Below are positions 2,387 through 46,370 of a DNA stretch of 48,671 nt, one piece after another. Position 1 is the first letter of the stretch. The number at the start of each line of letters is the position of its first letter. The stretch spans positions 1 through 48,671 of the forward strand of contig JBBIOM010000014.1 in NCBI GenBank assembly GCA_037443365.1, read 5' to 3'. The position numbers and the translations under genes are program-made. This DNA comes from Armatimonadota bacterium (GTDB lineage Bacteria; Sysuimicrobiota; Sysuimicrobiia; Sysuimicrobiales; Humicultoraceae). The notes below the pieces were generated by a model, which made no database searches, had not been told where the DNA came from, and was given only the letters and a program-made list of their open reading frames with translations.

Positions 2387-4182
2387 CTGCGCAGGACGTA
2401 CTCCACGGTAAGCGTTCGACCGGATGCGGGATAGCCCTGCACGGGTTCGTAGCGGGCATCGAGGAGGTTCTGGATCGAGAGGCGCAGCGCAGTTCCGGGT
2501 GATAGCGGCACCTGCGCCGACAGACCCACGCTCAGGTACGCCGGCAGCGTAACCGTGTTGGCGGAGTCGGCGAACCGCGCGCCAATGAGCGTGGCCGAGG
2601 CGGTCGCCGAGGCTCCGCGCGGCAGCGCCGCAGAGAGCGCCAGCGCCGCGGAATGGCGCGCCCGGTTGGGCAGGTCGAGCCCGGTCGCCGCATCCGTGGC
2701 CGCCAGCCATGTGGAGGACGCGCGCAGTCGCCAGGTCGGGCCTATCGCGCCCTCGAGCTCCACCGATGTGCCGCGGATCGTTGCCGCTCCCACGTTCTGC
2801 GGCGAGAAGACGAAGAGGTCATCGGGAACCCAGAGGATGAGATCGCGCACATCGCTCCAGAAGACGGTCACGCGTGCCGTGGCGCCGGGCCAGGGCGACG
2901 CCTCCAATCCGGCATCCACCGACCAGGCGTGCTCGGGGCGCAGCGCCGGGTTGCCGACCGCGAAACCGTCAAAGGGGTAGTACAGTTCGGCCATCGTCGG
3001 GCCGCGGAAGGTGCGGCCCGCGGCCAGGCGCAGGCGCAGGTCCGGGCGCGCGAAGTAGACCAGGCCTGCGCGCGGGCTGATCTGGGCGCCGTAGGCCGAG
3101 TGCAGGTCGGCGCGCAACCCGATCGAAAGCAGCAGGCGCGGTGTGAGCACCCGGTCGTCCTGCACGTAGAGCGCGCCGACAGTCGCCGACCGCTCTCCCA
3201 CGCTGGTGCTTCGCAGGTGCTGGAGCGCCAGGTCCGCGCCCAGCGTCACGGCGCGCGACGGAGAGAGCCGCGCGGCGCGCTGCCACTCGGCCGCCCATGC
3301 CGTCCCTGTGTGCCTGTCGTCAATCCACCAGCCGGGATCGCGGTAGGCGAGATGCTCGCGTTGCGCGGCGAAGCGCAGGCGGTTGGTGATGCCGCCCTGC
3401 TCCGACTCGAGCGTGAGCGAGGCGGCCAGGCGGCCGTCCTCCTGTCGGGCCAGCGGCGAGGGGAAGAAGGTCGAGCCCGGAGATCCCCGCGATGCGCTCG
3501 AGCCGATCACGCTGAGGTCCCACCGGCGCCCGGCGGCCGCGTCGCCCATGCGCAGCGAGAGGTAGCCGCCGCTCAGGTCGCTGTTGGGGCGCTCGCCGTC
3601 GGCCGCGTCGTAGCGCAGCGTCAGGCGGGCCTGGCCTCCGCCCGTGACCCCGAGACTGCGCAGGCCGAAGGAGCCGGCGCCCAGCGCGACCGCGCCCTCC
3701 GTGCGGCGGCGCGTGACGATGGATATCACGCCCCCCAGCGCACCGCTGCCGTAGATGGCGGAGAACGGCCCGCGCAGCACCTCGATGCGCTCGATGTCGT
3801 CCACCGGGATCGTGCCAAGGTCCACGGTCCCCGCGAAGACGCTGTTCAACGCAACGCCGTCCAGCAGCACCAGCACCTGCTCGGCGCTGCTCCCCCGTAT
3901 GCTGGGGGTGATCAGGCCGGCTGCGCCGCCGTAGGCGCGCGCCGCCACTTCGGGCAGGAACGCGATCGCCTCGCCCACGGTGCGCACGCCCAGCCGCCGC
4001 AGTTCCGCACCGGTGAGCACCGATACGCTGGCCGGGGATGCCGGAGCGGGCTGGGGACGCCGTGACGGCGAGACGACGTCAGGCAGTTCAAACTCGGGTG
4101 GGGGCTCCTGCGAAAGAAGCGGGACACAGAGCACCAGCGTGAGGAATGCGCACAGCGAAGAAGCCAGCAAACGGGCGAACAC
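2383..4182 (-). CDS. btuB: TonB-dependent receptor, BtuB-like (cobalamin uptake)
   Basis: Signal peptide, plug motifs (SIRGSSAEQVLVLLDG; IERIEVLRGPFSAIYGSGALGGVISIVT), C-terminal NLLDARY...GRT barrel end; directly downstream of a cobalamin riboswitch. Confidence 0.85.
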   Translation of the reverse strand: MFARLLASSLCAFLTLVLCVPLLSQEPPPEFELPDVVSPSRRPQPAPASPASVSVLTGAELRRLGVRTVGEAIAFLPEVAARAYGGAAGLITPSIRGSSAEQVLVLLDGVALNSVFAGTVDLGTIPVDDIERIEVLRGPFSAIYGSGALGGVISIVTRRRTEGAVALGAGSFGLRSLGVTGGGQARLTLRYDAADGERPNSDLSGGYLSLRMGDAAAGRRWDLSVIGSSASRGSPGSTFFPSPLARQEDGRLAASLTLESEQGGITNRLRFAAQREHLAYRDPGWWIDDRHTGTAWAAEWQRAARLSPSRAVTLGADLALQHLRSTSVGERSATVGALYVQDDRVLTPRLLLSIGLRADLHSAYGAQISPRAGLVYFARPDLRLRLAAGRTFRGPTMAELYYPFDGFAVGNPALRPEHAWSVDAGLEASPWPGATARVTVFWSDVRDLILWVPDDLFVFSPQNVGAATIRGTSVELEGAIGPTWRLRASSTWLAATDAATGLDLPNRARHSAALALSAALPRGASATASATLIGARFADSANTVTLPAYLSVGLSAQVPLSPGTALRLSIQNLLDARYEPVQGYPASGRTLTVEYVLRR

Positions 4183-4217
4183 CTGCCCACCTCCCTTGCC
4201 TCGAAGGCGTGTGGCAT

Positions 4218-4427
4218 CGGTGCAGGCAGGTCTTCTGGCTCGGGATCATCGCAGGGCGCCGGCCTTCCCAGGAGGTCTTCCCAGTGGCATGCCCCAAAGG
4301 GGGGCGCCTGCTCTCCGTGACAGCGGCGGGACCGCGCCGGGCTTCCACGGTCGCAACATGCGACCGGGCCACACCGGACTTCCCTATTATGGCGCAGTGC
4401 CTGGTACCCCTGCGCCGACCTGCACCG
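4218..4427 (-). ncRNA. cobalamin (AdoCbl) riboswitch
   Basis: Minus strand: P1 GGTGCAGG...CCTGCACC; AATAGGGAAGTCCGGTG; GCGGTCCCGCCGCTGTCA; GCCACTGGGAA...GGGAAGG; B12 box GAGCCAGAAGACCTGCC. Confidence 0.95.
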
Positions 4428-4473
4428 CCGCGGTCTGGATTCGACGGATGGGGCCGCGTTCCTCTTGCCCGTG

Positions 4474-5379: not shown

Positions 5380-7028
5380 CGGGCGCCCTCCCTCTCGGAG
5401 CACGGACCAGGCCCTTCCTTCAGGAAGATGCGATACCCGCGGTCCTCCACCTGCAAGCGCGCTCCCGCTGGCAGCAGCCGCGGGCTCCACCAATCCGGCG
5501 GGTCGGGCGGCAGGACGACGAACAGCCGCGCGTGGCCGGAGATCGCGTCTGCCATCTCCTCGGGGGCTTCTACCCAGACGATGCGGCGTCCGGAGTAGAA
5601 GCCGAGCGAGACGGCCGTGTTCATGCCCACCGCGGCGACGGCGTCTTGGGGGCACGCAGCCCCGGCTATCGCCCGCGCGATCCGCGGGATCGGACGGTAG
5701 CGCTCCATTGCAGGAAGCGTGACGTGCACCAGCACCGGCACGGCTACGACCGGGACCAACAGGAGCGCCGCAAGGCCTGCCCGCATCCGGCCCGACAGCA
5801 TGAAGCCGGCGGCCACGAGCGGCCCGGCGGCGAAGACCGCGGCCGCGGCCGCCACCGGCGCGCGCAGGTCTTGCATCTGTGATGGGAACTTGGTCCATCC
5901 GTGCAGCGCGATCGCCCCCACGAACACCGCCGCGCTTGCGGCCAGCAGCCCTGCGGTCAGGCGCACGAGACCGCGCGTCTCGCCCCGGGCGCCGGCGGCG
6001 ATCTCCTCCCACGCGCGCGCTGTCCCGATTGCCAACAGCGGGTAGACCGGCAGGATGTAGTTGGGCAGCTTGGTGCCGGCCATCGAGTAGAACAGCAGGG
6101 TAATACCGCTCCAGAGAAGGATCACCTGGCTGCCTATCTCGCGGTGCCGCCTCGCGTGGTGGAGCACCCCCACGGGAAGGAACGCTGTCCAGGGGAAGGC
6201 CCCCACGATCAGAACCGGGACGTAGTACCACCATGGTCCGGGCTGGTTCTCGACAACGCCGAAGAAACGGTTGAGCAGGTAGTAGCCAACCGCGCTGCGC
6301 AGGAACGGCTCGCCGTGCCGCAGCGCCTCAAGCGCGTACCATGATAGCCCGACCAAACAGAAGAGGGCGACGCCCGAGGGAGGGATCCTCCGCCAGGCCG
6401 ACCGGTCGCGCCGGACGATCCACAGGGCGACCACGGTCATGGCCGGCAGCAGCAGGCCGATCGGACCCTTAGTCAGTGTGGCCAGGCCGGCCCACACCCA
6501 CGCCCACACCGCTGCGCGGGAGGATCCGCCGGTGTACGCCACCAGATACGCGTAGAGCGCGAGCAGCATGAACAGCACCAGCGTGGGATCGAACACCGCG
6601 AGCCGCGACTGGGCCAGGAACTGGAAGGTCGTAGCCAGGATCGCCCCGGCAAGCACGCCTGTGGTCGGCCCGTAGAGCAGCCGCCCAATAAGGAAGGTGA
6701 CGCCCACCGCGCCGGCGCCGGAGATGGCGGACCAGATTCGCGCCGCGGCCTCGGTGAACCCAAACACCCGGCCGGTTGCGGCTTGGAGCCAGAAGAACAG
6801 CGGGGGATGCACGAACCACGGACGGCCGTTGCTGCGCAGTGTGATCGGATCGCCGCTCTCCAGGATCTCGCGCGCGATGCCGGCGTACCTGGGCTCGTCC
6901 TGGTCCCAGAGCGTCCCTGTGCCGATGCCGTAGCCAAAGAGCAGCAACGCCGCCAGGGTGACCGCAAGCGGCAGCCGCCATCCGGCGGGGGTGCCGCGTT
7001 CGCTCGCCGGCGCGGGGGCTCCGATCAC
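5376..7028 (-). CDS. ArnT/PMT-like (GT83/GT39) membrane glycosyltransferase
   Basis: DQDEPRYA, HPPLFFW, LATLTKGPIG, QPGPWWYY, TKLPNYILP motifs and many TM helices. Start is GTG 7028 (AGGAG RBS) or GTG 7043. Confidence 0.88.
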   Translation of the reverse strand: MIGAPAPASERGTPAGWRLPLAVTLAALLLFGYGIGTGTLWDQDEPRYAGIAREILESGDPITLRSNGRPWFVHPPLFFWLQAATGRVFGFTEAAARIWSAISGAGAVGVTFLIGRLLYGPTTGVLAGAILATTFQFLAQSRLAVFDPTLVLFMLLALYAYLVAYTGGSSRAAVWAWVWAGLATLTKGPIGLLLPAMTVVALWIVRRDRSAWRRIPPSGVALFCLVGLSWYALEALRHGEPFLRSAVGYYLLNRFFGVVENQPGPWWYYVPVLIVGAFPWTAFLPVGVLHHARRHREIGSQVILLWSGITLLFYSMAGTKLPNYILPVYPLLAIGTARAWEEIAAGARGETRGLVRLTAGLLAASAAVFVGAIALHGWTKFPSQMQDLRAPVAAAAAVFAAGPLVAAGFMLSGRMRAGLAALLLVPVVAVPVLVHVTLPAMERYRPIPRIARAIAGAACPQDAVAAVGMNTAVSLGFYSGRRIVWVEAPEEMADAISGHARLFVVLPPDPPDWWSPRLLPAGARLQVEDRGYRIFLKEGPGPCSEREGAR

Positions 7029-7039
7029 CGGGACTCCTG

Positions 7040-8110
7040 TCACCTGGCGAACCAGAGCAGGCAGCCTCCGGCGGACGCCACCATCAGGTTCGGCAGCCAT
7101 GCCGCCCAGAAGGCGGTGATCTGCCCGCGCTCCCCGAGGGTGATTGTTATGGACATGAGCAGGTAGTAGGCGATCAGCACCAGCACCGTGATCCCCAGGC
7201 CCGTGGAGCGCCCCGACCTGTGCGGCCGCAGCCCCAGGGGGACGGCGAGCAGCGCGAAGATCAGGCTGCTCGCCGGAAGGGCGATCTTCGCCTGGAGATT
7301 GACCGCGTATCGCACGGCGCTCTCCCCGGCCAGGCGGAGCGCGGCGATGTGCGCTCGCAGCTCGCCGATCGTCATCTCGCTGGGGTCGCGGCGCGGAAGC
7401 GCCATCTGCCTGGGCGTGCGCGCCAGGGCCACGCGCATCTGGTCGAACGTGACCTCCACGCCTGAACCGGCGCCAAGCGGGTACAGGGTGCCCTGCTTCA
7501 GAACCCATCCCGCCGCGGTGTAGCGCGCCTGCCGGGCCTCTATCAGGCGCACCGGCCGGCCCTGCTGGAACTGCGTGATGGTCACGCCGCGCATCGCGCC
7601 GTCGCTCGTGTCGAGCTCGATCGCGTAAAACACCGAATCCATGCCGTCCACCGGCTCGCGGAAGAGGACGTGGTGATGGATCGGGCGGGGCTGAGCCTGA
7701 ATCGCCTCGCTCAAAATCTCGCGGTAGCGCGTCTCGGAGCGCGGCACCACCCACTCGTTCATGCCCAGCGACGCCGCGGTGATCGCCGCGCCCGCGGCCA
7801 GCACGGGCAGCGCGATGCGCGCCAGGCTCCAACCCGTGGTGCGCAGGGCAGTGATCTCGTTGCGGTCGCTGAGGCGACCCGTGGCCAACAGCGTGGCCAG
7901 CAGCGTGGCCATCGGAAGACCGTAGACCGCCAGGTATGGGATCCGCAGCACGAGCAGGTAGAGACTTGTGCGCACGGGCACGCCCGAATCGGCGGCCAGA
8001 CGCGCCAGGAAGAAGAGGTGGTTGGCCAGCAGCAGCGTCGTGAAGACGGCGACGCCGAACAGGAATATGCCGCCGACCTCGCGCAAGATGTAGCGGTCAA
8101 TCAGGCGCAT
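7040..8110 (-). CDS. LPS export ABC permease LptF/LptG
   Basis: MRLIDRYILRE start, RLSDRNEITALRTTG, six-TM layout with periplasmic beta domain, AAWLPN end. Confidence 0.92.
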   Translation of the reverse strand: MRLIDRYILREVGGIFLFGVAVFTTLLLANHLFFLARLAADSGVPVRTSLYLLVLRIPYLAVYGLPMATLLATLLATGRLSDRNEITALRTTGWSLARIALPVLAAGAAITAASLGMNEWVVPRSETRYREILSEAIQAQPRPIHHHVLFREPVDGMDSVFYAIELDTSDGAMRGVTITQFQQGRPVRLIEARQARYTAAGWVLKQGTLYPLGAGSGVEVTFDQMRVALARTPRQMALPRRDPSEMTIGELRAHIAALRLAGESAVRYAVNLQAKIALPASSLIFALLAVPLGLRPHRSGRSTGLGITVLVLIAYYLLMSITITLGERGQITAFWAAWLPNLMVASAGGCLLWFAR

Positions 8111-10295: not shown

Positions 10296-11468
10296 TCATA
10301 CTACCGGACGCCCCACTGAGCGTTCAAGGCCGCGGGAAGCCACGGACAGCACCACGGCGGCTGCGCGGCGCGCGGCGCCCGGAGGTCCCAACGCCTCCCC
10401 CAGCACGCGCAGCCGTCGCGAGATCGCCTCGCGCGCCGGTGCATCGCAAAGCAGCGCCAGGACCGCGCGGCTCATCTCTCCGGCACTGGCCCGGGCCTGA
10501 AGCAGCTCGGGCACTACCTGCTCTCCTGCCATGATGTTGGGAATGGAGACCCACCGCACGTTGAACGCGGCCCGCGCATACCACCAGGTTGGACGCGAAA
10601 CCCGGTAGGTCACCACCATCGGCACGCCCAGGATCATGGCCTCAACCGCGGCGGTACCCGACGCCAGCAGCAGCACGGTGCTCGCGGCCATCACGTCGCG
10701 CGATCCGGGAACGAGCGTCACGGGCAGGCCGCTGGCGGCCACGCCCGCGGCCAGGCGCTCGTGGAAGACCGGGGATGCCTCGGCCATCGCGAACTCCACG
10801 TCGTGCGAGGCGGCGCGGATTGCGCGCGCCGCGTCCAGCATGCGCGGGAGCAGGGCGTCGAGCTCGAGCCCCCGGCTGCCGGGCAGCAGCCCGACCAGCG
10901 GGGCCTCGGGAGCGATCCCGATCCTGGCCCGCGCCGCCAGCCCACCGGAGGAGTCCACCAGGTCGGCCGCGGGATGCCCTACGAAGGTCACATCCGCGCC
11001 CACCCGCCGGTAGGCCTCTGCCTCAAAGGGGAAGATGGGCAGCAGTCGGGCGCCCAGGGCAGCCACGCGGGCGGCCCGGTTGCCGCGTCGAAGCGCTACC
11101 ATGGGCGGCACGTAGTACAGGGCCGGGATGCGACCCCGGAGCCGCTTCAGCAGCGCCAGGTTGAAGCCCGGGAAGTCGATGACCACCAGCGCACGCGGCG
11201 GATCGGCCAGCAGCCGGTCCACAAGCGCGGACAGGCGGCGCAGGAACGGCGCCAGGCGCAGCGCCGCCTCGTACCAGCCGATGACGCCCCAATCGCTGCT
11301 GTCCGCGACGAGCGAGACCCCGGCGGATGCCATGTGGCGCCCGCCGATCCCCTGCAGATGAACCGTGGGATCCGCCGCGGCGATCGCGCGCGCCAGTTCG
11401 GCGCCGTGCAGATCGCCCGAGACCTCCCCGGCCACAAGGAAGACGCGCCGGGGTCTAGGTGTGCTCAT
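10296..11468 (-). CDS. lpxB: lipid-A-disaccharide synthase
   Basis: VAGEVSGDLHG, IDFPGFNL, IFPFE, FVGHP, LLPGSR, ASGT, VVPELLQ. Confidence 0.93.
   Translation of the reverse strand: MSTPRPRRVFLVAGEVSGDLHGAELARAIAAADPTVHLQGIGGRHMASAGVSLVADSSDWGVIGWYEAALRLAPFLRRLSALVDRLLADPPRALVVIDFPGFNLALLKRLRGRIPALYYVPPMVALRRGNRAARVAALGARLLPIFPFEAEAYRRVGADVTFVGHPAADLVDSSGGLAARARIGIAPEAPLVGLLPGSRGLELDALLPRMLDAARAIRAASHDVEFAMAEASPVFHERLAAGVAASGLPVTLVPGSRDVMAASTVLLLASGTAAVEAMILGVPMVVTYRVSRPTWWYARAAFNVRWVSIPNIMAGEQVVPELLQARASAGEMSRAVLALLCDAPAREAISRRLRVLGEALGPPGAARRAAAVVLSVASRGLERSVGRPVV
10298..10327 (-). promoter_or_regulatory. putative internal sigma70 promoter for lptCAB
   Basis: Minus strand TTGAAC-N18-TAGTAT within the last codons of lpxB. 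Confidence 0.45.
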
Positions 11469-12294
11469 GAAACGGCGTGCCGAGACGCGGGGCATCGGCG
11501 GCGACCACCGTGATTCCCGCTGCGTCGGCATCGGCAATCATGCGCTCCCGATGGATCACGAGCGTGCGGTGCGCGTCAATACCCAGCACGCGCGCCGAGG
11601 CCTCGCGCATCGTGGCGATCGTGTCAGGACCGACGGCCGGGATGTCGAACCGGGGATCCTGGTAGTTCCGGCTCACCTTGACCACCACGGTTCCGGACGC
11701 CATGGCGCCGGCGCGCCGGATAGTGGAATCGGTGCCCTCGGCGGCCTCCACGGCCAGGATGACCCCGCGGCGCACGACCACTGTCTGCCCAACGTCCAGG
11801 TCCGCGATGCGCCGGGCAACCGCGCGCCCGAACCGCAGATCCGCCTCTTCCTCGGGCGTGGGACCGCGCGCGGTCAGCACGCCCGCGGGAGCCAGGAGAT
11901 CCCCGACAAACACGGTCTGATCGAGCAGCACGATGCCCTGCTCCGCCAGCAGCGCGGCCAGGTGCCGAAGGAGCGGGACGTCGCGGCGGTCGCCGGCGCT
12001 GGCCATTACGCTTTCCATCATGGCGTCGCCGCGCACCAGCAGCTCTTCCCTGCCGAAGCGCCCCGCCACCAGCACTTCTCGGATGCGGTGGGCGCACAGC
12101 GCCTCGAGCACCTCCCGCAGCGCACCGGGCCTGCAACGCTTGTAGTGGTCGGCCAGGCCCGCAAGCGCAGGCGATTCGCCGGCGACCTGCAGGCAGACCA
12201 GTGCCAGGCCGCGCGCCTTGATCGCCCTGGCAATGACCTCGGGGAACGCTCCCGTCCCCGCAAGCAGGCCTACGCTTCCGCTCTGGGCTGCCAT
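11455..12294 (-). CDS. lpxI: UDP-2,3-diacylglucosamine hydrolase LpxI
   Basis: GLLAGTGAFP, DVGQT, AVEAAEGTD, QDPRFDIPAVG; lies between lpxA and lpxB. Confidence 0.92.
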   Translation of the reverse strand: MAAQSGSVGLLAGTGAFPEVIARAIKARGLALVCLQVAGESPALAGLADHYKRCRPGALREVLEALCAHRIREVLVAGRFGREELLVRGDAMMESVMASAGDRRDVPLLRHLAALLAEQGIVLLDQTVFVGDLLAPAGVLTARGPTPEEEADLRFGRAVARRIADLDVGQTVVVRRGVILAVEAAEGTDSTIRRAGAMASGTVVVKVSRNYQDPRFDIPAVGPDTIATMREASARVLGIDAHRTLVIHRERMIADADAAGITVVAADAPRLGTPFHEHT

Positions 12295-13097
12295 CGCACG
12301 ATCCCCCGGTTGCGCCCTCTGGACAGGCGGATGAAGGCAAGGAACTCCTGCGCCGAAGGGCTGCCGGCGGCCTCGGCCTCGATCGCGCGCAGGGCCTCGT
12401 CCATGGTGCGCCGCTCTCTGAAGAACAGCCGGAACACGCGTTGCAGCGCGAGCCGGTCATCGGGCGGCACTCCCTGGCGTGCCAGGCCCACCCTGTTCAG
12501 GCCCACGGCCCGTGCCATGAGCCCGGCGGCCATCACGAAGGGCGGCACGTCCTGCCGCGCGCCCGAGAGCCCGGCCAGCATCACCAGCCGGCCGATGCGC
12601 ACGTGCTGGTGCACCCCGGAGAGGCCTCCCAGATAGGCCTGGTCCCCTACGTGGACCCAACCACCCAACTGCGTGCCGCTGACGATCGTTGTGTCGCTGT
12701 CCACGACGCAGTTGTGGCTTACGCGCACAGAGGACATGATGTAGTTCCGGTCCCCGATGCGCGTCTCGTTTCCATCGCCCGTGGCGCGCTCGATGCTGCA
12801 GAACTCGCTGATGCGGTTCTCGTCGCCGACCATGACGCGGGTCGGCTCTCCACCGTAGGACCGGTCCTGCGGGCGCGCGCCGATCACCACGTGCGCGGCG
12901 AGGGTGTTGCGGTCTCCCAGATGCACGTTGTCGTGAATCACCGAGTGCGGGCCGATCACGCTTCCGGCCCCGATAACGACACCGGCTCCTATCACGGCGA
13001 AGGCGCCGATCTCAACGCCCGCGCCCAGGTGGGCGCTGGGGTGCACCACTGCGCCCGGATGAACGGTGATGGCCTCGCAGGCGGCGGGCTCACGCAT
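12270..13097 (-). CDS. lpxA: acyl-ACP--UDP-GlcNAc O-acyltransferase (divergent)
   Basis: Hexapeptide repeats, PQD, HN-C, VHQ, QDVPPF, GLNRVGL; fabZ-lpxA-lpxI-lpxB synteny. Confidence 0.9.
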   Translation of the reverse strand: MREPAACEAITVHPGAVVHPSAHLGAGVEIGAFAVIGAGVVIGAGSVIGPHSVIHDNVHLGDRNTLAAHVVIGARPQDRSYGGEPTRVMVGDENRISEFCSIERATGDGNETRIGDRNYIMSSVRVSHNCVVDSDTTIVSGTQLGGWVHVGDQAYLGGLSGVHQHVRIGRLVMLAGLSGARQDVPPFVMAAGLMARAVGLNRVGLARQGVPPDDRLALQRVFRLFFRERRTMDEALRAIEAEAAGSPSAQEFLAFIRLSRGRNRGIVRWQPRAEA

Positions 13098-13563
13098 CGT
13101 CGTGCTCCTGCATCCCGGACTGCCCGACCGCCTCGGCCGCGGCCGAGAAGAAGAACGTCAGCGTACCGTCGGCCACGGGTTGCCCGTCCACCCGCACCTC
13201 GGCCTGCACCTTCAGGAACCTGCCCCTCTTCCTTAGGATCTCCACCCGGACGACCATCTGGTCGCCGGGCACCACGCGGCGGCGGAACCGGACACCGTCT
13301 ATCGCCCCGAAGTAGGCGATGCGCCCGCGCAGCGCGGGGTCATCCAGCACCAGGCAGGCGGCGACCTGCGCCATCGTCTCAACCACCAGCACTCCTGGCA
13401 TCACCGGATGCCCGGGGATGTGCCCCACGAAGAAGGGCTCGTTGATGGTCACGTTCTTGATCCCGGTGATGGTGCGCCCTGGGTCGAGGGCGATGATGCG
13501 GTCCACCAGCAGGAAGGGGTACCGGTGGGGCATCACGCTCTGGATCTTCTCAATGTCCCACAT
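13090..13563 (-). CDS. fabZ: 3-hydroxyacyl-ACP dehydratase
   Basis: PHRYPFLLVDRI, KNVTINEPFF, PVMPGVLVVETMAQ; RBS GAGGAGG before ATG 13563. Confidence 0.95.
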   Translation of the reverse strand: MWDIEKIQSVMPHRYPFLLVDRIIALDPGRTITGIKNVTINEPFFVGHIPGHPVMPGVLVVETMAQVAACLVLDDPALRGRIAYFGAIDGVRFRRRVVPGDQMVVRVEILRKRGRFLKVQAEVRVDGQPVADGTLTFFFSAAAEAVGQSGMQEHDDA

Positions 13564-14422
13564 GCTGGCCTCCTCGGGCGTTGCGGCCTCCTGCGAACCG
13601 CCGCGCGATCTCGCGTGCGAGCGCCACGTGCAGCGCGTGCCCGGCGCGCACCGCCACAATGTGCGCGCGCACTGGACGCCCGAGCAGCGCCAGGTCGCCG
13701 ATGGCGTCAAGGATCTTGTGCCGCGCCATCTCGTTGGGGAATCGCGGCTCGTTGAGGAACCCCTGCGGACCGATGGCCAGGACCGTCTCAAGCGACACCC
13801 CGCGCGCCATCCCCTGGGCCCGCAGGGCCTCGATCTCCGCCGCCATGCCCCAGGTGCGGGCCGGGGCGATCGAGGCCGCGAAGTCGTCCGCATCCTCGCG
13901 GAACTCGGCCATCTGGGGGGCGAGGGAGGCCAGGTGGGCCGTGACCACGTAGGTCACCTGGAACCGGCCAGCGGGCAGGGCCGCGATCATGCTGCCGCCC
14001 TCGCTGGCCCACAGCGGCTCGTCCACCACCAGCGGAATCCTGGGCGCGTCCTGGCGCGCGCTGCCCGCGGCCTGCAGCGCCTCGACGAAGACAAGGGCGC
14101 TGCCGTCGCCGCAGGGCAGTTCCTCTCCCTCAACCTCGACCAGCATGTTGTCTACACCCAGCCCCCGGGCCGCGGACATGAGGTGTTCCACCGTCGCGAC
14201 GCGCACGGATCCGCCGAGCACGATGCTCCGCGCCGTTGCCGCCACCTCATCCAGGCAGGCCGGAATGCGCGGCGCGCCCGGTAGGTCGGTCCGCGCGAAC
14301 GTGATGCCCTCATCGGGGTTCGCGGGCAGCAACCGCGCCACGGCCGGGGAGCCGCTGTGGAGCCCGGTTCCCCGAATCAGGACGGGCCGGGCGATCGTGT
14401 GCTGCCAGTCGCTGGGGATCAT
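13550..14422 (-). CDS. lpxC: UDP-3-O-acyl-GlcNAc deacetylase
   Basis: QHTIA, GTGLHSG, TVEHLMSA, DGSA, APARTWG, RHKILD, GHALH. Confidence 0.95.
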   Translation of the reverse strand: MIPSDWQHTIARPVLIRGTGLHSGSPAVARLLPANPDEGITFARTDLPGAPRIPACLDEVAATARSIVLGGSVRVATVEHLMSAARGLGVDNMLVEVEGEELPCGDGSALVFVEALQAAGSARQDAPRIPLVVDEPLWASEGGSMIAALPAGRFQVTYVVTAHLASLAPQMAEFREDADDFAASIAPARTWGMAAEIEALRAQGMARGVSLETVLAIGPQGFLNEPRFPNEMARHKILDAIGDLALLGRPVRAHIVAVRAGHALHVALAREIARRFAGGRNARGGQHVGH

Positions 14423-16200
14423 CGCGGTCGGAGTGCCAGGCGGACAGGGTAGTATGAGCCGGCCACCGGCATTGCAACGAGTGAGACGTCCCTCGCCCCG
14501 CCGGGCGCCACCGCGAACGCTGCCACCGGGCGCCCTTCGCCGGGGCGCATCAGACCGACATCAACAGGCGCTCCGTCCACGATGAACAGGCCGCGAGCCA
14601 GGCCGCCCGCGGCGGTGGCCACCAGCTCGGTCGCCACCTCGCGGGACGTGGGATTCACAAGGCGCAGGCGCACACGGTAGAGAACGCCGTAGTCCCCAAT
14701 CAGCGGCTCACCCGTTCGGACGTCGCGGAGCCCTGACATGACGCCCAGGTCGGCCAGATGCGCGGGCTCATCGGCCGCCTGTTCCCGGACGATCTCAACG
14801 AGCGACCCGGGAAAGGTGCCCCGTGGATGCTGAAACGCCCACGGCCCGAGATCGGTGGTCACGGTCCGATCGAGCAGCCAGGGCAGCCGGACGTGGACCA
14901 CTAGTTCCACCGGACCGCCCTCGGTTACCTGGAACTGCATGAGCCCGGATACCATGGCCAGCGGGGCAAGGGTGTAGGCGGTGAAGGCAGTGGCCCCCCT
15001 GGGGGGCACCTCTACGAAGTAGCCCTGGCCCGAGGCGAGCGCCCCCAGGAACCGCGCGGTCGAGGCAAACCCGGCGTGGATGAAGTCGGGCGAGGGCCCG
15101 GCGATGCCTCGCACGTAGTGCACGCGGGCCGCGGCAGCGCCGGGGTTCGCAAGCGTGACCTTCAGCACCCGCACCTGCGACGGCGTGCCGTTCATGTGGT
15201 GATACAACAGGCGCGCGGGCCGGTCACGCACCAGGGTCTCCTGAAAGAGCAGCCCATCCCCGGTTATCTTCTCGGGCCGGTTGCTGATCAGGAGTACCGC
15301 GGGATCCGCCAGAGGCAGGGGCTGGTTGGCGACCGTCACGTTCATCCTGCCGCGCACGCTCCCCGCGTAAGGGCTGCGGACCAGAACCGCCACAGCGGTT
15401 GAGAGCGATGCCCCGGGCTCGAGTGGAGCCGCAATCTCAATCGGCCCCATCTCCATGACGGCGCCGGGTGAGCGCAGCACCGCTTCCTGGAGGCGGCGCA
15501 GGATCGCCTCGCGGATGAGGTCGGGATCGGCCGGGGCGCCGGTGACCACCGTCTCGATGGCCGCAGGAATCACGCCGGCGGCCGGGCGAACCGCTATGCC
15601 CAGTTGGGAGCGGTACGCTCCGACGCGCAGGGGCACAACGGTGCTGCCCAACTGCCGGGCCGCAATACGCAGGGTGCCGGCTTCCAGGACCACGTCGGCG
15701 ACGCGGCGGTCGTAACTGCCCAGCCGGACCTCTCCGGGGATGGTCACCGCGATCGTTGCGGTCGCCGTTGCGCCAGGGGATAGAACCACGCTCGCTGGCG
15801 TGACGGCTATCGCGGGGGTCGCAAGCGCCTCGGCGAGTGCCCGCGCCCACTCGCGTGCCAGCGCGATGCGTCCTGTGCCGGCGCGCGCCGCATCGGACTG
15901 CTCCGCGGTCAGGAGCAAGACGCCGTTGGCCACAACTCCGGCTCCGCGATTGCCCACGACTACCCTGCTCGAAGGGGACAAGAGCGGGGCCAGGCGCCGG
16001 GCCGCATCATCGAGCCGGCGCCGCGCGGCAGGCCCGAAGAGCCGCACGACCGGAACTCCGCGCACCCTCATCTCGGCTCCTGCGGGGCTCCCTCGGAGCA
16101 GCACGACGGTGATCTCGCCGCTTGCGGGTTCGGCGGGCCGGATAGACCCGAGCAGCAGCCCCGTGATCAGGACCGCGCAGGCAGTCCAGAGGCGTCTCAT
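14419..16200 (-). CDS. exported hypothetical protein (C-terminal part possibly DUF3370-like)
   Basis: 593 aa with signal peptide, ATGA-coupled to lpxD and lpxC. LLISNRPE...GLLF...RLLYHHMN resembles motifs recalled from DUF3370-type proteins; family call is tentative. Confidence 0.6.
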
Positions 16201-36933: not shown

Positions 36934-37350
36934 CTACCGCCGCAAAGCCTCGCCCCGCAGATCCGCCAGGCTCAACCTGTCCAGCACGCCGTCGGCGGCA
37001 CCACGCACCGCGCGCCAGAGAAGCCGCAGGCCGCAATCAGGAGCATGCTCGCAGTCGGGGGCGTCCTCCTCCACGCACCGCCAGGGCGCCGTTGACCCCT
37101 CCAGGACCGCGAACACCTCGCGCAGGCTGATCCGCTCGGGCGGACGCGACAGCTCGTGCCCGCCCAGGCGGCCACGCTTGCTGACAACCAGCCCTGCTGT
37201 GCGTAACGCCGCCATGAGCTTGTGGAGGTACGGCTCCGGCAATCGCTGCCGCGACGCGATCTCCTGGCTGTGAACAGGGCCTTCCCCGTAGTGGGCGGCC
37301 AAGTCAATGAGCGCCCGGATGCCGTACTCGGCCCGCGTGGAGACCCTCAC
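36934..37350 (-). CDS. Rrf2 family regulator with three Cys (IscR/CymR-like)
   Basis: STRAEYGIRAL, LVVSKRGRLGG, LEG; C-x7-C-x5-C cluster (RCVEEDAPDCEHAPDC). Confidence 0.92.
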   Translation of the reverse strand: MRVSTRAEYGIRALIDLAAHYGEGPVHSQEIASRQRLPEPYLHKLMAALRTAGLVVSKRGRLGGHELSRPPERISLREVFAVLEGSTAPWRCVEEDAPDCEHAPDCGLRLLWRAVRGAADGVLDRLSLADLRGEALRR

Positions 37351-37763
37351 AGCGACACCACCAGATCCTCCTCGGTCACAACTCCACCCTGTATCCGAAA
37401 CGCGCGCAGCTCCACCTCGTGCGCCGGCGCATCCGCCGATGGGAGCGATACTATGAGATACGCCACCTCGGGGTAGGAAGCCTGCGCGACGTCGGTCTGG
37501 GACGGCCGCGCCGGTGAGCCGGGATGCGAATGGTAGATGCCCACCAGCTCCATCCCCAGCGCGTCCATCTCCCGGAAGGCCAGGAACTGCTCCTGCGGAT
37601 CGAGGCGGTAGGTAAATGGGCTCGGGTCAACGTTGCCGGCCCGGAACACGCGCTCGATGCGGCTCCCCCTACCCGCGAGCAAACCGCAGCACTCGTTGGG
37701 GAACTTCGTGCGCGCGTGGACTGTGATCTCCACGGCGTGCGCCAGGCCGATCTCAAGAGCCAT
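37347..37763 (-). CDS. JAMM/MPN (M67) metallopeptidase, Mec-like
   Basis: PNECCG and GIYHSHPGSPARPSQTD JAMM motif. Confidence 0.9.
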   Translation of the reverse strand: MALEIGLAHAVEITVHARTKFPNECCGLLAGRGSRIERVFRAGNVDPSPFTYRLDPQEQFLAFREMDALGMELVGIYHSHPGSPARPSQTDVAQASYPEVAYLIVSLPSADAPAHEVELRAFRIQGGVVTEEDLVVSL

Positions 37764-37793
37764 GGGTCGGATGCAGCCACCCTGCCACGTCGG

Positions 37794-38642
37794 TCACTCG
37801 TCGTAGAGGACCGTGGGCTCGGGGTAGCGGCGCACGCGGTTCTCCATGATCCTTGCGTGCACGATCGCGTCAAGACGCGCCTGCTTCGTCGCGGTGGGCT
37901 CATCGGCGCGCAGTATGCACAGGTCGAGATTCACGCGCAGCGCGCGCTGGGGAACAACGTGCCGGCTGATGCCGGTGGGAAGCCTCACCGGAAGCCGGGC
38001 GATCGTGCCGATGTCCTGCTTGGTGAAGCGCGGGAAGATTACGAGCGCAGCCGCCGGGCCGTACTCGTGCTCCAGATCGCCCAGGTGAGAACCCTGGACT
38101 CGGAAGATCGGCACGCGCCCCCTGTACCGGGTCACCACCTCGCCCAGCGCCCTGACCCGTCCGGCCAGCCCGGTGTCCGAGGGAAGGCCAAAGGCCCCGC
38201 CCGCGGCTATGATGCCGCATGCCAGGTCGCCTCCCGCAAGCCCGGCGCGCACGTCCTCTTCCGGCATCGGCCGCCAGGCAAGGAAGGGCGGCCCCTGGCT
38301 CCCGACCAGCACGCCGTCGTCCCGGAGCAGGTGTGACCAGACGTCGAGAACGACCGCGGGATCGGCGTAGTCCACGACCTGAACAAGCTGGTCGGGAAAC
38401 CCGGCCTGCCGGAGCACGGTCACCCGGTTGGCGCCGTCGAGCACCACGTACATCCCCCCATCCAGGTGAGCGACGATGGGTGGGTTGCGCAGAACCCCGT
38501 CGGCGACAAGGACGCGCGCAAGCCGCTCCACGCGGCCGGGATCGCATTCCTCGTGCAGCAGCAGCGACGCCGACGGAACGATGCGCAGCACGGGCAGCAC
38601 GTGATCAGAGGAGGCCCTGGGCGGGCCGGAGACGCCTGACAT
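37794..38642 (-). CDS. ParB/Srx-fold protein, SbnI/SerK-like putative free L-serine kinase
   Basis: LLLHEE...RVERL...LRNPPIV...YVVLDGANR, DVWSH, and C-terminal LPTGISRHVVPQRALRVNLDL parallel the S. aureus SbnI motifs as recalled (LHE...HPILV...IDGVHR...TWQH...PAGVTRF..RCLNL). Confidence 0.65.
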   Translation of the reverse strand: MSGVSGPPRASSDHVLPVLRIVPSASLLLHEECDPGRVERLARVLVADGVLRNPPIVAHLDGGMYVVLDGANRVTVLRQAGFPDQLVQVVDYADPAVVLDVWSHLLRDDGVLVGSQGPPFLAWRPMPEEDVRAGLAGGDLACGIIAAGGAFGLPSDTGLAGRVRALGEVVTRYRGRVPIFRVQGSHLGDLEHEYGPAAALVIFPRFTKQDIGTIARLPVRLPTGISRHVVPQRALRVNLDLCILRADEPTATKQARLDAIVHARIMENRVRRYPEPTVLYDE

Positions 38643-38651
38643 GGTACGATC

Positions 38652-39350
38652 CTACACCAGGGCGAGGGCCGCTTCCAGATCCCGACGAGTGATCGGCGAG
38701 AGCACGATGCCAAAGGACCGGCCGAACTGCTCGGGATAGACCCGGCGCACCTCCGTGATCTCAACGGGGTGGCCCAAGACCGCGCTCATCGAGGTGACCG
38801 GGCGGCCCAGCCCGCACGGGTTGACCAAGGAAAACGCGTCGAGCGCACCTGCCACGTTCAGGGCGAACCCGTGCATGGTCACGCGGCGCCTGACCGCCAC
38901 CCCCACGGAGCAGATCTTGGCGCCGCCAACCCAGACGCCGGGATAGCCCTTCTCGCGCACTGCCGCGATGCCGAAGCACTCCAGGGTCCGGATTATGGAC
39001 TCCTCCATCGTGCGCATGTACCGGGTCACGTCCTCGCCCATGGTCCCCAGATCCACAATCGGGTAGCCTACGAGCTGCCCGGGACCGTGGTACGTGACGC
39101 TGCCGCCGCGCTCCACGCGATAGTGCTGGATGCCGCGCGACGCCAGATCCTCGGGCGATGCGCGAAGGTGCTCGGGCCTCCCGCTGCGCCCCACCGTTAT
39201 CACCGGCGGATGCTCCAGCAAGACCACCACGTCCGGGATCCGTCCGGCCTGGCGCGCAGCGACAAGCTCCTTCTGGAGGGCCCATGCCTCGGCATAGGGA
39301 ACGGCTTTCCCCCCCAGGTCGAGCAGCCATCCCGCCGGCGCCTTCATCAC
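38652..39350 (-). CDS. lipB: lipoyl(octanoyl) transferase
   Basis: LLEHPPVITVG, RGGSVTYHGPGQLVGYPI, KICSVG, MHGFALNV, NPCG. Confidence 0.95.
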   Translation of the reverse strand: MMKAPAGWLLDLGGKAVPYAEAWALQKELVAARQAGRIPDVVVLLEHPPVITVGRSGRPEHLRASPEDLASRGIQHYRVERGGSVTYHGPGQLVGYPIVDLGTMGEDVTRYMRTMEESIIRTLECFGIAAVREKGYPGVWVGGAKICSVGVAVRRRVTMHGFALNVAGALDAFSLVNPCGLGRPVTSMSAVLGHPVEITEVRRVYPEQFGRSFGIVLSPITRRDLEAALALV

Positions 39351-39356
39351 ACGGGA

Positions 39357-39385
39357 AGCGTACCAGAGCCGCTGGGGGCCAACAA
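39357..39385 (-). promoter_or_regulatory. putative sigma70 promoter of leaderless lipB operon
   Basis: TTGTTG-N17-TACGCT with TG extension, 6 nt before GTGATG; no SD sequence. Confidence 0.55.
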
Positions 39386-39456
39386 GAGACGTTGCAGGGA
39401 TTGGGCGGCGCTGCGCGCAACATACCTGCGATGGGCACAGCAGGGGTGATCTGCCG

Positions 39457-40137
39457 ATGACCGTCCACGACATCTCGAAGACCGAACGGACCGAGATGTA
39501 CCTCAAGGCGGTCTACACCCTGTCGCAGACCGCGCCGCCTGTTACGATCACGAAGGTCGCCGAGTACATGGCCGTCTCGGCGCCGGCGTCCTACGAGATG
39601 CTCAAGCGCCTTGAGGCGCAGGGACTCCTGCAGTCCGCGGCAGGAGAAGGGCACACACTGACCCGGCAGGGGATGCGTACCGCCACCCGTGTGGTCCGAC
39701 GGCTGCGCCTGGCTGAGCGCCTGCTCTCGGACGTACTGAAGGTCGAGCTGCCCCAGGTCTACGCCGAGGCCTGCAAGCTCGAGCACGTGATCAGCCCCGA
39801 GGTCGAGGCGCGCATGGCCATCGTGCTGGGGCACCCGGCAACCTGCCCGCACGGCCTGCCGATTCCCGGCGATGCCGCGCCGCCCGCGCAATCGCTGCGC
39901 ACCGTTGCCCAGCTCGAGACAGGGGACCACGCCGTGCTCGTGGGCATCCCCGAGGACGACGAGCCCGTCGTGACGCACCTGGTGGAGTTGGGCCTGACCC
40001 CGGGAACCGCGATCGTGGTCGCGGAGGCAGCAGCGCTGGGCGGTCCGGTCACGCTGCAGATCGAGGGACAGACAAGGGCGCTGGCGCTGGAGATGGCCCG
40101 GCGGCTCTTCGTGCGACGGGAACGCACCTCATCCTAG
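39457..40137 (+). CDS. DtxR/IdeR/MntR family metal-dependent regulator with FeoA-like domain
   Basis: EMYLKAVY, HTH, RLAERLL, EACKLEH, PATCPHGLPIPG, LGLTPG. Confidence 0.92.
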   Translation: MTVHDISKTERTEMYLKAVYTLSQTAPPVTITKVAEYMAVSAPASYEMLKRLEAQGLLQSAAGEGHTLTRQGMRTATRVVRRLRLAERLLSDVLKVELPQVYAEACKLEHVISPEVEARMAIVLGHPATCPHGLPIPGDAAPPAQSLRTVAQLETGDHAVLVGIPEDDEPVVTHLVELGLTPGTAIVVAEAAALGGPVTLQIEGQTRALALEMARRLFVRRERTSS

Positions 40138-43744: not shown

Positions 43745-44534
43745 CGCTCGAAGCCCGGAGGACCTTCGCGAAGTCGGCAACTACGTGGTTGCCCTCGAAT
43801 ATGGGCTGGAGCGGCTCAAGGCCCTCCCCCTCTCCCTCCGACTCGTGCGCGAACTACACGCGCGACTGATGGGCGGGGTTGGCGGCAGCCAGGCGATCCC
43901 CGGGGAGTTCCGGAGCACACAGAACTGGATCGGGCCTCCCGGGGCCAATCTGGCCTCGGCCACCCCTGTGCAGATAGCGCTGGCCCATTACCAGTTCGAG
44001 GCCATTCATCCATTCCTGGATGGCAAAGGCCGCGTGGGCCGGCTACTCGTCACGCTGTTTCTGGTCGAGCGCGAGATCCTGCCGAAGCCCATCCTGTACC
44101 TCAGCGCCTTCTTCGAAGCAACGCGGCGCGACTACTACGATCGCCTGCTTGGGGTCAGCGAACGCGGGGAGTGGAGCGGCTGGCTCGAGTACTTCCTGAC
44201 GGGCGTGGCCCGGCAGGCCGAGGATGCCCTCAGAAGGTCCGCGAGGATCAACGAGCTCCTGGCGGAGTGGCGGGTCGCCGCCTCGGGCTTCGCGGCCAAG
44301 ACGCCGATCACGGTGATCGATCTGCTGGCCGAGAACCCGTACTGCACGATACGAGGGGTCGCGAAGCGCCTGGGTGTCGCCTACACAACGGCGCAGCGGG
44401 CCATCGAGAGACTGGAATCGCTCTCCATCGTCGCCCAGGTGGGGAAGGCGAAGCGCGGTCGAGTGTTCTGCGCCAGGGCCCTGCTGCAGGTTCTTGAGGC
44501 GCCGGCGACGCTGCATCCTGTGAAGGCAAGTTGA
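43740..44534 (+). pseudogene. Fic family protein, N-truncated and internally deleted
   Basis: DLREVGNYVVALEYG, GEFRSTQNWIG, HYQFEAIHPFLDGKGR (N->K in Fic motif), C-terminal HTH. No upstream in-frame start (TAA at 43674), and the segment expected between ASAT and VQIALAH is missing. Confidence 0.75.
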
Positions 44535-44562: not shown

Positions 44563-45921
44563 TCAGGGCTGTAGCACCGCCAACTCGCGCATCGCCTTCC
44601 TGATCGCCTCCTCCGGGTAAGCGAAGTCCTCTAGACGGCCGGCCAGGTGCGCCTCGTAGGCCGCCATGTCGAAGTGGCCGTGGCCGGATAGCCCGAAGAG
44701 AATCGTGCGCGGCCGGCCTTCCTTCTTCGCCTCCAACGCCTCGTCAATCGCCTTGCGGATGGCGTGCGCCGCCTCCGGCGCCGGGATGATCCCCTCGGCG
44801 CGCGCGAACTGAAGCGCGGCGTCAAAGACCGTACGCTGCTGGTAGGCCGCGGCCTCCACGTACTTGTGGTGGTAGAGCAGGCACAGCAGCGGCGCATCGC
44901 CGTGGTAGCGCAGGCCGCCCGCGTGAATGCCCGGCGGCACGAAGGTGTGTCCCAGCGTGTACATCTTGACCAGGGGCGTGGTGGCCGCTGTGTCGCCAAA
45001 GTCATAGAGGTAATCGCCGCGGGTCAGCGTTGGGCACGCCTCGGGCTCGACGGCTACGAACCGCGTAGCGCTCCCCTTGAACTTCTCCGGCATGAACGGG
45101 AAGGCAAGGCCCGAGAAGTTGCTGCCGCCGCCGACGCAGCCGATGACGACGTCCGGAGCGTCGCCGGCCAGTTCCATCTGGCGGCGGGCCTCCAGTCCGA
45201 TGACGGTCTGGTGCAGCATCACGTGGTTCAGCACGCTGCCCAGCGAGTACTTGGTGTCATCGTGCGTGGCGGCGTCCTCGACCGCCTCGCTTATCGCGAT
45301 GCCCAGGCTGCCAGGCGAATCGGGCGCCTTCTCGAGGATCGCCCTGCCGGCGTGCGTGCGGTCGGTCGGGCTGGAGAACACGTCCGCGCCCCATGCCTGC
45401 ATCATCAGCTTGCGATAGGGCTTCTGATCGTAGGAAACCCGCACCATGTAGACGGTGCAGTCGAGGCCGAACAGCCGGCAGGCCAGCGCCAGCGCGCTTC
45501 CCCACTGGCCAGCGCCGGTCTCGGTGGCCAGGCGACGCACGCCCTCCTGCTTGTTGTAGAACGCCTGCGCCACCGCGGTGTTGGGCTTGTGGCTGCCGGC
45601 CGGGCTGGTGCCCTCGTACTTGTAGTAGATGCGGGCGGGCGTATCGAGCGCCGCCTCCAGCCGCCGCGCGCGGTAGAGGGGCGTGGGCCGCCACAGGCGG
45701 TACACGTCGCGCACCGGGGCGGGTATCTCGATCTCGCGCTCGGCGCTGACCTCCTGCTTGATGAGCTCCATCGGAAACAGCGGAGCGAGATCGGCCGGGC
45801 CGATCGGCTGCCTCGTCCCCGGATGGAGCACCGCCGCCGGCGACACCGGCAGGTCGGCGACGATGTTGTACCAGGAGCGGGGCACGTCGCCTTCGCCCAG
45901 CAGGATCTTGGTGGAATCCAT
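44563..45921 (-). CDS. trpB2: TrpB2-type tryptophan synthase beta (stand-alone)
   Basis: [67 protein letters not shown]. Confidence 0.95.
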
Positions 45922-45969
45922 CTCCAGCACCTCCCCGTTTTCCCGTCGCCGGTCGGTCCCCCGACGGGT

Positions 45970-46236
45970 GAAATGATGCCGGCCTCCGTCGAGGGACGGA
46001 GGCCGGCTCCGTGGTGCCACCCATGTTCCGGGGGATCGCTGTGCGCGAGCCCGCAGCGCTCTGATCCGCTAACGGCGAATCAACCGGCGCGGCTACTGGA
46101 GCGGTTTGGCGCTTGGCGCCTCCCGCCCGTTCACCGCGCGCCTCGCGGGTCCATTCCGCGCCGCGCAGCGGCCGCCTTCCACCTTAGCGGCTCTCTGTGC
46201 GCCCGCCTGGCGCGTACTCGTCCCGTTCATCGGGCT
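45970..46236 (-). ncRNA. T-box riboswitch with Trp (UGG) specifier
   Basis: Minus strand order: GATGAA..., AGTA, AGAGAG box, GGTGGAA loop, specifier loop GAA-TGG-A (46151-46153), stem II GGTGAA...AGTAGCC, CCGTTA F-box, T-box AACATGGGTGGCACCACG (46010-46027), CGTCCC antiterminator 3' arm. Confidence 0.9.
45978..46007 (-). terminator. T-box terminator hairpin
   Basis: 13-bp perfect stem GCCGGCCTCCGTC/GACGGAGGCCGGC followed by a weak U tract (ATCATTTC); overlaps the antiterminator. Confidence 0.8.
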
Positions 46237-46370
46237 GATTGAACCGCGTGCTTCGCCGTCTCTTGCCGATCTCCTGCCTGCCGAACCCGGCGCCTGCGGC
46301 ACCTCCAGCCGTACCGCAGGGGCGCAACCCAGGCCTCGGTGACCGGGCGGCCGGAGCCATCCGCATCCTG

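Follow-up and report, generated by a model that had tools for sequence, protein, structure and literature searches.

Tryptophan (Trp) T-boxes are counted among the commonest T-box classes in the TBDB preprint, and the T-box hosts named there and in a review (PMC3766115) are Firmicutes, Actinobacteria, Chloroflexi, Deinococcus-Thermus and Geobacter. Wels et al. (2008, PMC2494555) described T-boxes on 'trpE and trpB-like' genes in Dehalococcoides. In this study, a stretch of 48,671 nucleotides (the window; contig JBBIOM010000014.1) from a metagenome-assembled genome (MAG) of the Armatimonadota was analysed, in which a Trp-specific T-box leader lies directly upstream of the gene trpB2. The leader has the same Stem I with UGG specifier and AGAGA and GGUGNRA motifs as the T-boxes of Firmicutes trp operons and of Dehalococcoides, the same opposition of an antiterminator with a UGGN bulge to a downstream hairpin, and a Trp-related target. 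It differs from them in its host, an Armatimonadota diderm encoding lipopolysaccharide (LPS) functions, in its score below the family cut-off, in its very high G+C content, in its weak U tract and in regulating a TrpB2 beside which the genome retains no other Trp-pathway enzyme. What is distinctive here is the phylum, the survival of TrpB2 as the sole Trp enzyme after operon deletions, and a Trp T-box retained on an aroG-trpS remnant.

There is debate over what TrpB2 does physiologically. Indole salvage is a proposed role (PMC2700814 and PMC11917138), and PMC11917138, citing Busch 2014, describes TrpB2 enzymes as dependent on phosphoserine. In most described organisms TrpB2 sits beside a full Trp pathway, whereas the TrpB2 of the window lacks TrpA, TrpB1 and the upstream pathway, and differs from known TrpB2 by its predicted control through tRNA-Trp. 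The genital strains of Chlamydia trachomatis, an intracellular pathogen, keep only trpBA, are rescued by indole, and use the TrpR repressor. Like the lineage studied here they are Trp auxotrophs that have the last step only and depend on exogenous indole, but they employ TrpB1 and TrpA under TrpR, whereas the window lineage is free-living and environmental and has a stand-alone TrpB2 under a T-box. We consider it likely that this TrpB2 salvages indole and is induced by Trp starvation, gated by the tRNA-Trp T-box, most likely via transcription attenuation.

The Trp T-box leader of trpB2

The features of the locus, all on the minus strand, are as follows.

45989..46239, minus strand: Trp-specific T-box leader (Stem I, Stem II, IIA/B hairpin, Stem III and antiterminator), from the RF00230 match
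46151..46153, minus strand: specifier codon UGG (Trp), followed by A at 46150, from the covariance-model alignment GAA-UGG-A
46016..46019, minus strand: antiterminator bulge UGGC, predicted partner of the GCCA 3' end of tRNA-Trp (discriminator G73 plus encoded CCA)
45992..46023, minus strand: antiterminator helix (UGGG / bulge / ACGGA ... UCCGU / CCCU), from the covariance-model structure line; helices 10 and 11 of the pairing analysis
45971..46007, minus strand: terminator-type hairpin (13-bp stem, loop CCUC) with the tail AUCAUUU, mutually exclusive with the antiterminator
45930..45936, minus strand: Shine-Dalgarno (SD)-like GGGGAGG, 8 nt 5' of the ATG and about 40 nt 3' of the hairpin
44563..45921, minus strand: trpB2 (ATG at 45921, stop at 44563), 452 amino acids, monocistronic, matching NF009057 and TIGR01415

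A covariance-model search with the Rfam T-box family RF00230 matched the leader with 72.9 bits over model positions 1-219 of 219, at the same place in a 601-base search (E 6.9e-16) and in a search of the whole genome (E 6.2e-16). The specifier loop was aligned as GAGUA...GAA-UGG-A, so that the model placed UGG and no different codon at the specifier position, and the distal Stem I motifs CAGAGAG (AGAGA) and AAGGUGGAA (GGUGGAA, fitting GGUGNRA) were present, as were the GA/K-turn region and Stems II and III. The T-box sequence is GGGUGGCACCACG, with the bulge UGGC at 46019-46016, and the conserved T-box segment GGGUGGCACCACGG occupies 46022-46009 within an antiterminator that carries a UGGN bulge. 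The region 45989-46239 is a full-length Trp-specific T-box leader. These results agree with the initial annotation, made from the window's letters alone, which had described a T-box leader with a UGG specifier and a terminator upstream of a stand-alone trpB2, with no trpA adjacent, in a lipid-A-encoding diderm; each of these points held, the terminator with the reservation that its tail is poor in U.

Two observations on the covariance-model score and on the conservation statistics count against this description and should be weighed with it. The first is that 72.9 bits lies under the Rfam gathering score of 93 for RF00230, which is why a default Rfam scan of the whole window did not report the T-box and returned a cobalamin riboswitch and a tRNA only; the leader was recovered when it was searched alone with permissive filters. 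Only one of the 11 T-box matches in the whole genome (70% G+C) exceeded the cut-off, and the shortfall is therefore typical of the genome rather than specific to this leader. Rfam's present cut-off for RF00230 thus misses most T-boxes in such G+C-rich genomes. The second concerns the pairing counts given below.

The leader fits the single tRNA-Trp of the genome, which has the anticodon CCA, the discriminator G73 and an encoded CCA: the specifier UGG is complementary to the anticodon, and the bulge UGGC to G73-CCA. Three codons, AUG, UGG and GGA, are possible readings of the string GAAUGGA. The AUG and GGA frames were ruled out by the discriminators, A73 in both tRNA-Met genes and U73 in tRNA-Gly(UCC), which do not suit UGGC, and UGG is therefore the only frame that satisfies both tRNA contacts. 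The discriminator rule holds elsewhere in the genome, where the Ser (UCC) T-box has UGGC and the tRNA-Ser genes have G73, and where the Leu and Phe T-boxes have the bulge UGGU, matching the A73 of their tRNAs.

Conservation was examined in a sample of 94 genomes of the order, in which G000 denotes the genome of the window. Within the genus, the covariance model found the leader upstream of trpB2 in all six genomes with readable upstream DNA (G000, G027, G028, G029, G030 and G031); in G032 trpB2 runs off the contig, and G033 has no trpB2. In other genera, full-length matches with a UGG specifier were found upstream of trpB2 in G092, G007 and G004, a Stem I match (near-full-length by nhmmer) in G038, a leader positive by nhmmer and regular expression only in G039, and a 3' fragment only in G008. 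No T-box was found by covariance model, nhmmer or regular expression in 38 of the 50 trpB2 upstream regions examined in the order. The strict T-box-motif regular expression missed nothing that the profile searches found, and nhmmer missed one locus (L086).

The UGG specifier was invariant in the nine aligned Armatimonadota leaders, and the bulge was UGGC in eight of them and UGGU in one. Over these nine leaders 94.3% of the helix cells were paired, as compared with 41-50% when the partners were slid, a figure that is inflated to some degree since the pairing scheme derives from the sequence of the window itself; six compensatory pairs were counted against 0-3 in the slid controls, and the Stem I helices were 94-100% paired.

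Outside the phylum, T-boxes were found on four Chloroflexota loci among 80 trpB2 loci, again all with UGG. At the Dehalococcoidales trpB2 loci (L020-L024) neither the regular expression nor nhmmer detected a T-box, with less than 400 nt of upstream sequence available for L023 (as also for L041). In a TrpB2 tree of 109 rows, obtained by a quick search with midpoint rooting, the proteins of the order formed one clade (Shimodaira-Hasegawa-like approximate likelihood ratio test support 99), in which the T-box has a patchy distribution, on 8 of 32 rows, and the Chloroflexota cases fell in other clades. A single origin of the T-box/trpB2 pairing across phyla was rejected, the T-box-bearing branches forcing at least five changes on this tree. 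Within the order, the simplest reading is that an ancestral leader was lost repeatedly, because the Armatimonadota leaders can be aligned with one another.

The hairpin downstream of the T-box sequence, a perfect 13-bp stem spanning 46007-45978, shares a strand with the antiterminator, in that the CUCCGUC of its 5' strand doubles as the antiterminator 3' strand. Its energy was -35.3 kcal/mol (z -5.8), and none of 200 shuffled sequences was equally stable. Over the nine leaders it was 90.6% paired, and two of its pairs (four cells) had changed in a compensatory manner, from G-C to A-U and from C-G to U-A. A competitor of this kind could serve as a terminator or as a sequestrator. The most likely read-out of the leader is transcription termination, that is, attenuation. 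Several observations do not favor termination: the tail AUCAUUU is U-poor, with three consecutive U at most, consensus scans of the leader region returned no terminator and no sigma-70-type promoter, and most of the other T-boxes in the genome stop 0-45 nt short of a start codon, which suggests that translational T-boxes are frequent in this organism.

These same observations could be explained if the T-box acted on translation, as in the ileS T-boxes of Actinobacteria, with access to the Shine-Dalgarno sequence gated by the hairpin or by some larger fold into which its 3' strand enters. The weak U tract and the position of many other T-boxes next to start codons are consistent with SD sequestration, translational T-boxes are known (PMC1262725), and one fold of 45905-45990 joins the hairpin 3' strand to GGUGCUGG beside the SD. 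The SD (45936-45930), where GAGG/GGGGAGGTG is conserved in the leader alignment, lies about 40 nt past the hairpin and outside its stem, however, and the SD-pairing fold is no better than shuffled sequence (z -0.93; 31 of 200 shuffles at least as stable) and would shut off translation when the leader is antiterminated, an effect of the wrong sign. In addition, the hairpin is still followed by a U-rich tail in relatives (UGUUUCGUG, AUUAUUCUU), and the aligned tail of G092 continues as UAUUCAUUUUU. Control of translation therefore appears improbable for this leader, and termination is the read-out assumed in what follows.

Loss of the trp pathway and the function of TrpB2

The product of trpB2 passed the cut-offs of both TrpB2-type models over its full length (NF009057, 736.8 bits against 366; TIGR01415, 642.6 against 518.85), whereas the TrpB1 model TIGR00263 gave 145.1 bits against a cut-off of 392.45. 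Its closest solved relatives were the Sulfolobus TrpB2-type chains 6hul_B (453 bits) and 4qys_B (379 bits), with end-to-end alignments, and the likeness in full-length alignment and motifs extends to the Sulfolobus chain 6hte_B. The motifs GSHK, ETGAGQWG and GGGSN are intact and aligned with those of 6hul_B and 4qys_B; we take GSHK to be the pyridoxal phosphate-lysine motif and ETGAGQWG the catalytic glutamate motif of TrpB2. The gene is considered monocistronic because the next gene downstream, at 43785-44534 on the plus strand, is convergent with it; this gene encodes a Fic/DOC-domain protein fused to a winged-helix helix-turn-helix domain. The nearest named relative of the TrpB2 protein, at 95% identity, is from a MAG labelled Candidatus Nitrosymbiomonas sp.

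The absence of trpA is not confined to the neighborhood of trpB2. Profile searches of the genome, a 69-contig MAG that is 97.7% complete, found no trpA, trpB1, indole-3-glycerol phosphate synthase (IGPS, trpC) or phosphoribosylanthranilate isomerase (trpF). Candidates for two further enzymes were rejected: the sole chorismate-binding enzyme is an isochorismate synthase and not TrpE, and a weak TrpD-like match is a pyrimidine-nucleoside phosphorylase. In G027, G029, G030 and G031 (91-96% complete), trpA and IGPS were also not found, whereas G028 has both. On contig C158 of G028 the order is Trp-specifier T-box, aroG, a 0.8-kb interval, trpE, trpG, trpD, trpC, trpS, trpF, trpB1, trpA, and two genes designated Y and Z, and every trp gene there scored above its family cut-off.

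With 69 contigs, a single lost contig could take a whole operon with it, and the trp genes might then be missing from the MAG only as an artefact of incomplete assembly. Contig C21 of G000 (11468-15786), however, carries the orthologues of aroG, trpS, Y and Z next to each other with no N in the sequence, aroG being 93% and trpS 90% identical to the G028 orthologues. The comparison of C21 with C158 gave three collinear nucleotide blocks of 81-87% identity that abut at both junctions, and C21 showed no trace of either the 3.9-kb trpEGDC block or the 2.6-kb trpFBA block. The pathway loss is real, because the deletion flanks are contiguous and free of trp remnants, and it is best described as two precise deletions, of trpEGDC and of trpFBA, as read from this comparison. 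With four further congeners also lacking detectable trpA and IGPS, we regard assembly artefact as having practically no chance of being the cause, and the C21/C158 synteny led us to reject it.

The aroG gene, which encodes DAHP synthase, still has a leader of its own in G000, and this is also a Trp T-box (GAA-UGG-G, bulge UGGC; 28.4 bits and E 0.006 in the search that covered it). The Trp T-box regulon therefore consists of aroG...trpS and trpB2.

The results suggest the following mechanism. When tRNA-Trp is charged, the leader would adopt the 13-bp hairpin, and the transcript would most likely stop before trpB2. When it is uncharged, its anticodon CCA would pair with the specifier UGG in Stem I and its free GCCA 3' end with the UGGC bulge, which would stabilise the antiterminator and allow trpB2 to be expressed. 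The same signal would govern the operon remnant aroG...trpS. The deletion of trpEGDC and trpFBA would have abolished the synthesis of indole-3-glycerol phosphate, and TrpB2 would for this reason be the only route to tryptophan. When Trp runs short, and only then, it would join free indole to either serine or O-phosphoserine. The indole could come from neighboring cells or from a tryptophanase-family lyase of the cell itself. The initial annotation had argued from control by tRNA-Trp that this TrpB2 makes tryptophan; this proposal is strengthened, because TrpB2 is the only Trp-pathway enzyme left after the two deletions.

It is conceivable that TrpB2 does not synthesize Trp here and catalyses another beta-replacement or a deamination, or that the leader is an inactive relic. 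The debate over the physiological role of TrpB2 leaves room for this, as does the failure to detect a T-box in at least those 38 of the 50 upstream regions of the order. Both tRNA-Trp contacts and the helices are nevertheless conserved, with compensatory change, across genera, the motifs GSHK and ETGAGQWG that we take to be catalytic are intact, and there would be no precedent for a gene without relation to Trp being governed by a Trp-specific sensor. Moreover, the lineage without the trp operon has retained both the leader and the gene in five of five genomes. We therefore judge a function outside Trp synthesis, or a relic leader, to be very improbable, and indole salvage under Trp starvation remains the preferred explanation. 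The retention of trpB2 together with its tRNA-Trp sensor in all five operon-less genomes would be hard to explain unless TrpB2 alone supplies Trp from indole when Trp is scarce. Discussion of what TrpB2 does in the cell has so far relied largely on enzymology. The present lineage amounts to a natural experiment, and the indole-salvage idea is directly testable with one enzyme, one leader and one tRNA, the sequences of which are all known.

Two paralogues of the tryptophanase family are encoded in the genome (G000:C6:31606-33006 and G000:C16:402-1871), and both are present in all eight genomes of the genus. A clear tyrosine phenol-lyase is among them (783.6 bits, cut-off 720.7). The other, at G000:C6:31606-33006, matched best with the tryptophanase subfamily NF009709 (670.8 bits against 285). 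This second gene fell below both TnaA equivalog cut-offs (596.7 against 750 and 520.6 against 825.8) and scored nearly as well, with 586.7, on the tyrosine phenol-lyase model. Because the TnaA cut-offs were missed and the tyrosine phenol-lyase score was nearly equal, it is possible, though uncertain, that the cell makes its own indole by this lyase. The pair of paralogues fits an amino-acid-degrading lifestyle.

The SbnI/SerK-family protein and O-phosphoserine

One further gene of the window bears on the co-substrate of TrpB2.

37794..38642, minus strand: SbnI/SerK-family protein, a candidate free serine kinase, 7.3 kb from trpB2

By sequence profiles this protein is remote from characterized families. 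It scored 49.3 bits, against a cut-off of 350, on the NCBIfam SbnI equivalog, over the N-terminal 100 residues only, and no Pfam family matched it at E 0.1, whereas phmmer found the SbnI structure 5uje at E 2e-10. An AlphaFold2 model built from 21 homologues (predicted local distance difference test score, pLDDT, 89.3) was compared by Foldseek, which matched both domains with SbnI at template modelling (TM) scores of 0.78-0.83 and with SerK at a TM score of 0.81 (E 1e-15 to 1e-17). The nine best matches were three SbnI, five SerK and the Pyrococcus homologue 1vk1, with 235-263 aligned columns and TM scores (target) of 0.72-0.83; the match to ParB and sulfiredoxin (Srx) covered about 80 columns of the N-terminal domain only. 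The protein thus has the two-domain SbnI/SerK fold. The glutamate of the LHE motif (E31) and the aspartate of the DGxxR motif (D69) were invariant in all 21 homologues and aligned with the SbnI motifs, and PDB titles name SerK E30 mutants; we presume that E31 and D69 are the catalytic acidic residues.

The protein accordingly has in common with SbnI (Staphylococcus) and SerK (Thermococcus) the two-domain fold and the N-terminal LHE and DGxxR motifs, but it is only 17-19% identical to them, far under the SbnI cut-off, and no siderophore (sbn) genes surround it. Its gene row (36934-39506, minus strand) consists of genes for an Rrf2-family regulator, a JAB/MPN protein (desampylase-like), the SbnI/SerK-like protein and LipB.

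It is possible, although we regard it as doubtful, that in addition to the mechanism described above, and without excluding any part of it, this protein phosphorylates free serine and TrpB2 joins the resulting O-phosphoserine with indole. The fold over both domains and the invariant E31 and D69 speak for this addition, as does the phosphoserine dependence of TrpB2 enzymes cited above. Canonical SerC (best match 20.6 bits) and SerB (best match 29 bits) were not found in the genome, and its SerA-like dehydrogenases are ambiguous; since the usual source of phosphoserine is therefore not evident, the idea stays alive. In about 30 genomes of three families of the order, an uncontrolled raw count, a single contig also carries trpB2 and the kinase-like gene at a distance of 5-20 kb.

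Several results point the other way. The kinase-like gene occurs in 88 of the 94 genomes, including lineages without trpB2: it is present in six of seven genomes of lineage g23 and three of three of lineage g6, where trpB2 is found in none of the seven and none of the three, and in G033. This distribution suggests that the gene is not a dedicated partner of TrpB2 and has another core role. It has no T-box and is outside any trpB2 operon, the SbnI equivalog score is low, and a CysK/M-like enzyme is present (309.5 bits against a cut-off of 344). Furthermore, a T-box with a Ser specifier (UCC) precedes a gene for a class-V (AGXT-like) aminotransferase, followed by serS (G000:C21:23316-24747 and downstream); this aminotransferase may be a non-canonical enzyme of the serine pathway, and could be a non-canonical phosphoserine aminotransferase. 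The initial annotation had named an SbnI-like kinase as a possible supplier of O-phosphoserine to TrpB2. As far as the fold goes, its label was correct over both domains, but a nearly universal gene is not a dedicated partner, and the co-occurrence of the two genes, which had been suggested as a check, neither supports nor refutes a dedicated supply.

If the lyase, TrpB2 and the kinase were combined, they could form a T-box-gated indole/tryptophan cycle in a Trp auxotroph, an arrangement that we consider unlikely. In such a cycle, plentiful Trp would be cleaved by the lyase to indole, pyruvate and ammonia while trpB2 is off; uncharged tRNA-Trp would then allow TrpB2 to recapture the cell's own or the community's indole, using O-phosphoserine supplied by the SbnI/SerK-type kinase. 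With phosphate as the leaving group, the reaction would in effect run irreversibly toward synthesis. Through the aroG-trpS remnant, uncharged tRNA-Trp would also raise the Trp-tRNA synthetase. Were this true, indole would be a recoverable Trp reserve, or a good shared by the community, for this subsurface lineage.

Host, T-box regulon and other RNA elements

The window encodes LpxD, LptB/C/F-G, an LptA-like protein, BamA, TamB and a TonB-dependent receptor, and the host is therefore an LPS diderm. It is an Armatimonadota lineage near Candidatus Nitrosymbiomonas, which the NCBI taxonomy places under Armatimonadota in the kingdom Bacillati. The initial annotation had stressed the diderm host of an element found mainly in Firmicutes, but a T-box is not exceptional for this lineage: T-boxes at E ≤ 1e-9 were found in 93 of the 94 genomes of the order, a count that takes in the unpublished genomes G025 and G017, so that the element is ordinary for the lineage. 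In the genome of the window, T-boxes precede ilvB, leuA, leuS, the class-V aminotransferase gene with serS, pheS, valS, proS, ileS, hisS and the DAHP synthase gene. These results document a rich T-box regulon in the Armatimonadota, covering aminoacyl-tRNA synthetase genes, ilvB, leuA, aroG-trpS and trpB2. A full-text literature search found no publication linking T-boxes with Armatimonadetes or Armatimonadota, although the supplements of PMC3766115 or the phylum figure of TBDB may include Armatimonadota or trpB2 T-boxes, and the search found no T-box/trpB2 pairing by that name, the Dehalococcoides 'trpB-like' case aside.

Other elements were observed in the course of the analysis. The cobalamin riboswitch of the window (4208-4438, minus strand, 97.5 bits) lies directly 5' of a gene for a BtuB-like TonB-dependent receptor (2383-4182, minus strand). 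At the Candidatus Promineofilum locus L087, near a Chloroflexota trpB2, long perfect palindromes were found at 5980-6050, 4353-4438 and 7108-7292; they are built of GGGATTA-type heptamer repeats and gave spurious 'microRNA' matches.

The leuS T-box leader (specifier CUC; G000:C1:21693-22025, minus strand, equivalent to L004:1501-1833) holds a complete tRNA-Ala(GGC) gene (L004:1566-1640) on the same strand, with an encoded CCA, which is the only tRNA-Ala(GGC) gene of the genome. It sits between the Stem II/IIA-B region and the Stem III/antiterminator of the T-box, and its processing by RNase P and RNase Z would sever Stem I from the antiterminator. G027 has a T-box match of comparable length (340 nt), a hint that the combination of leuS leader and tRNA-Ala is conserved.

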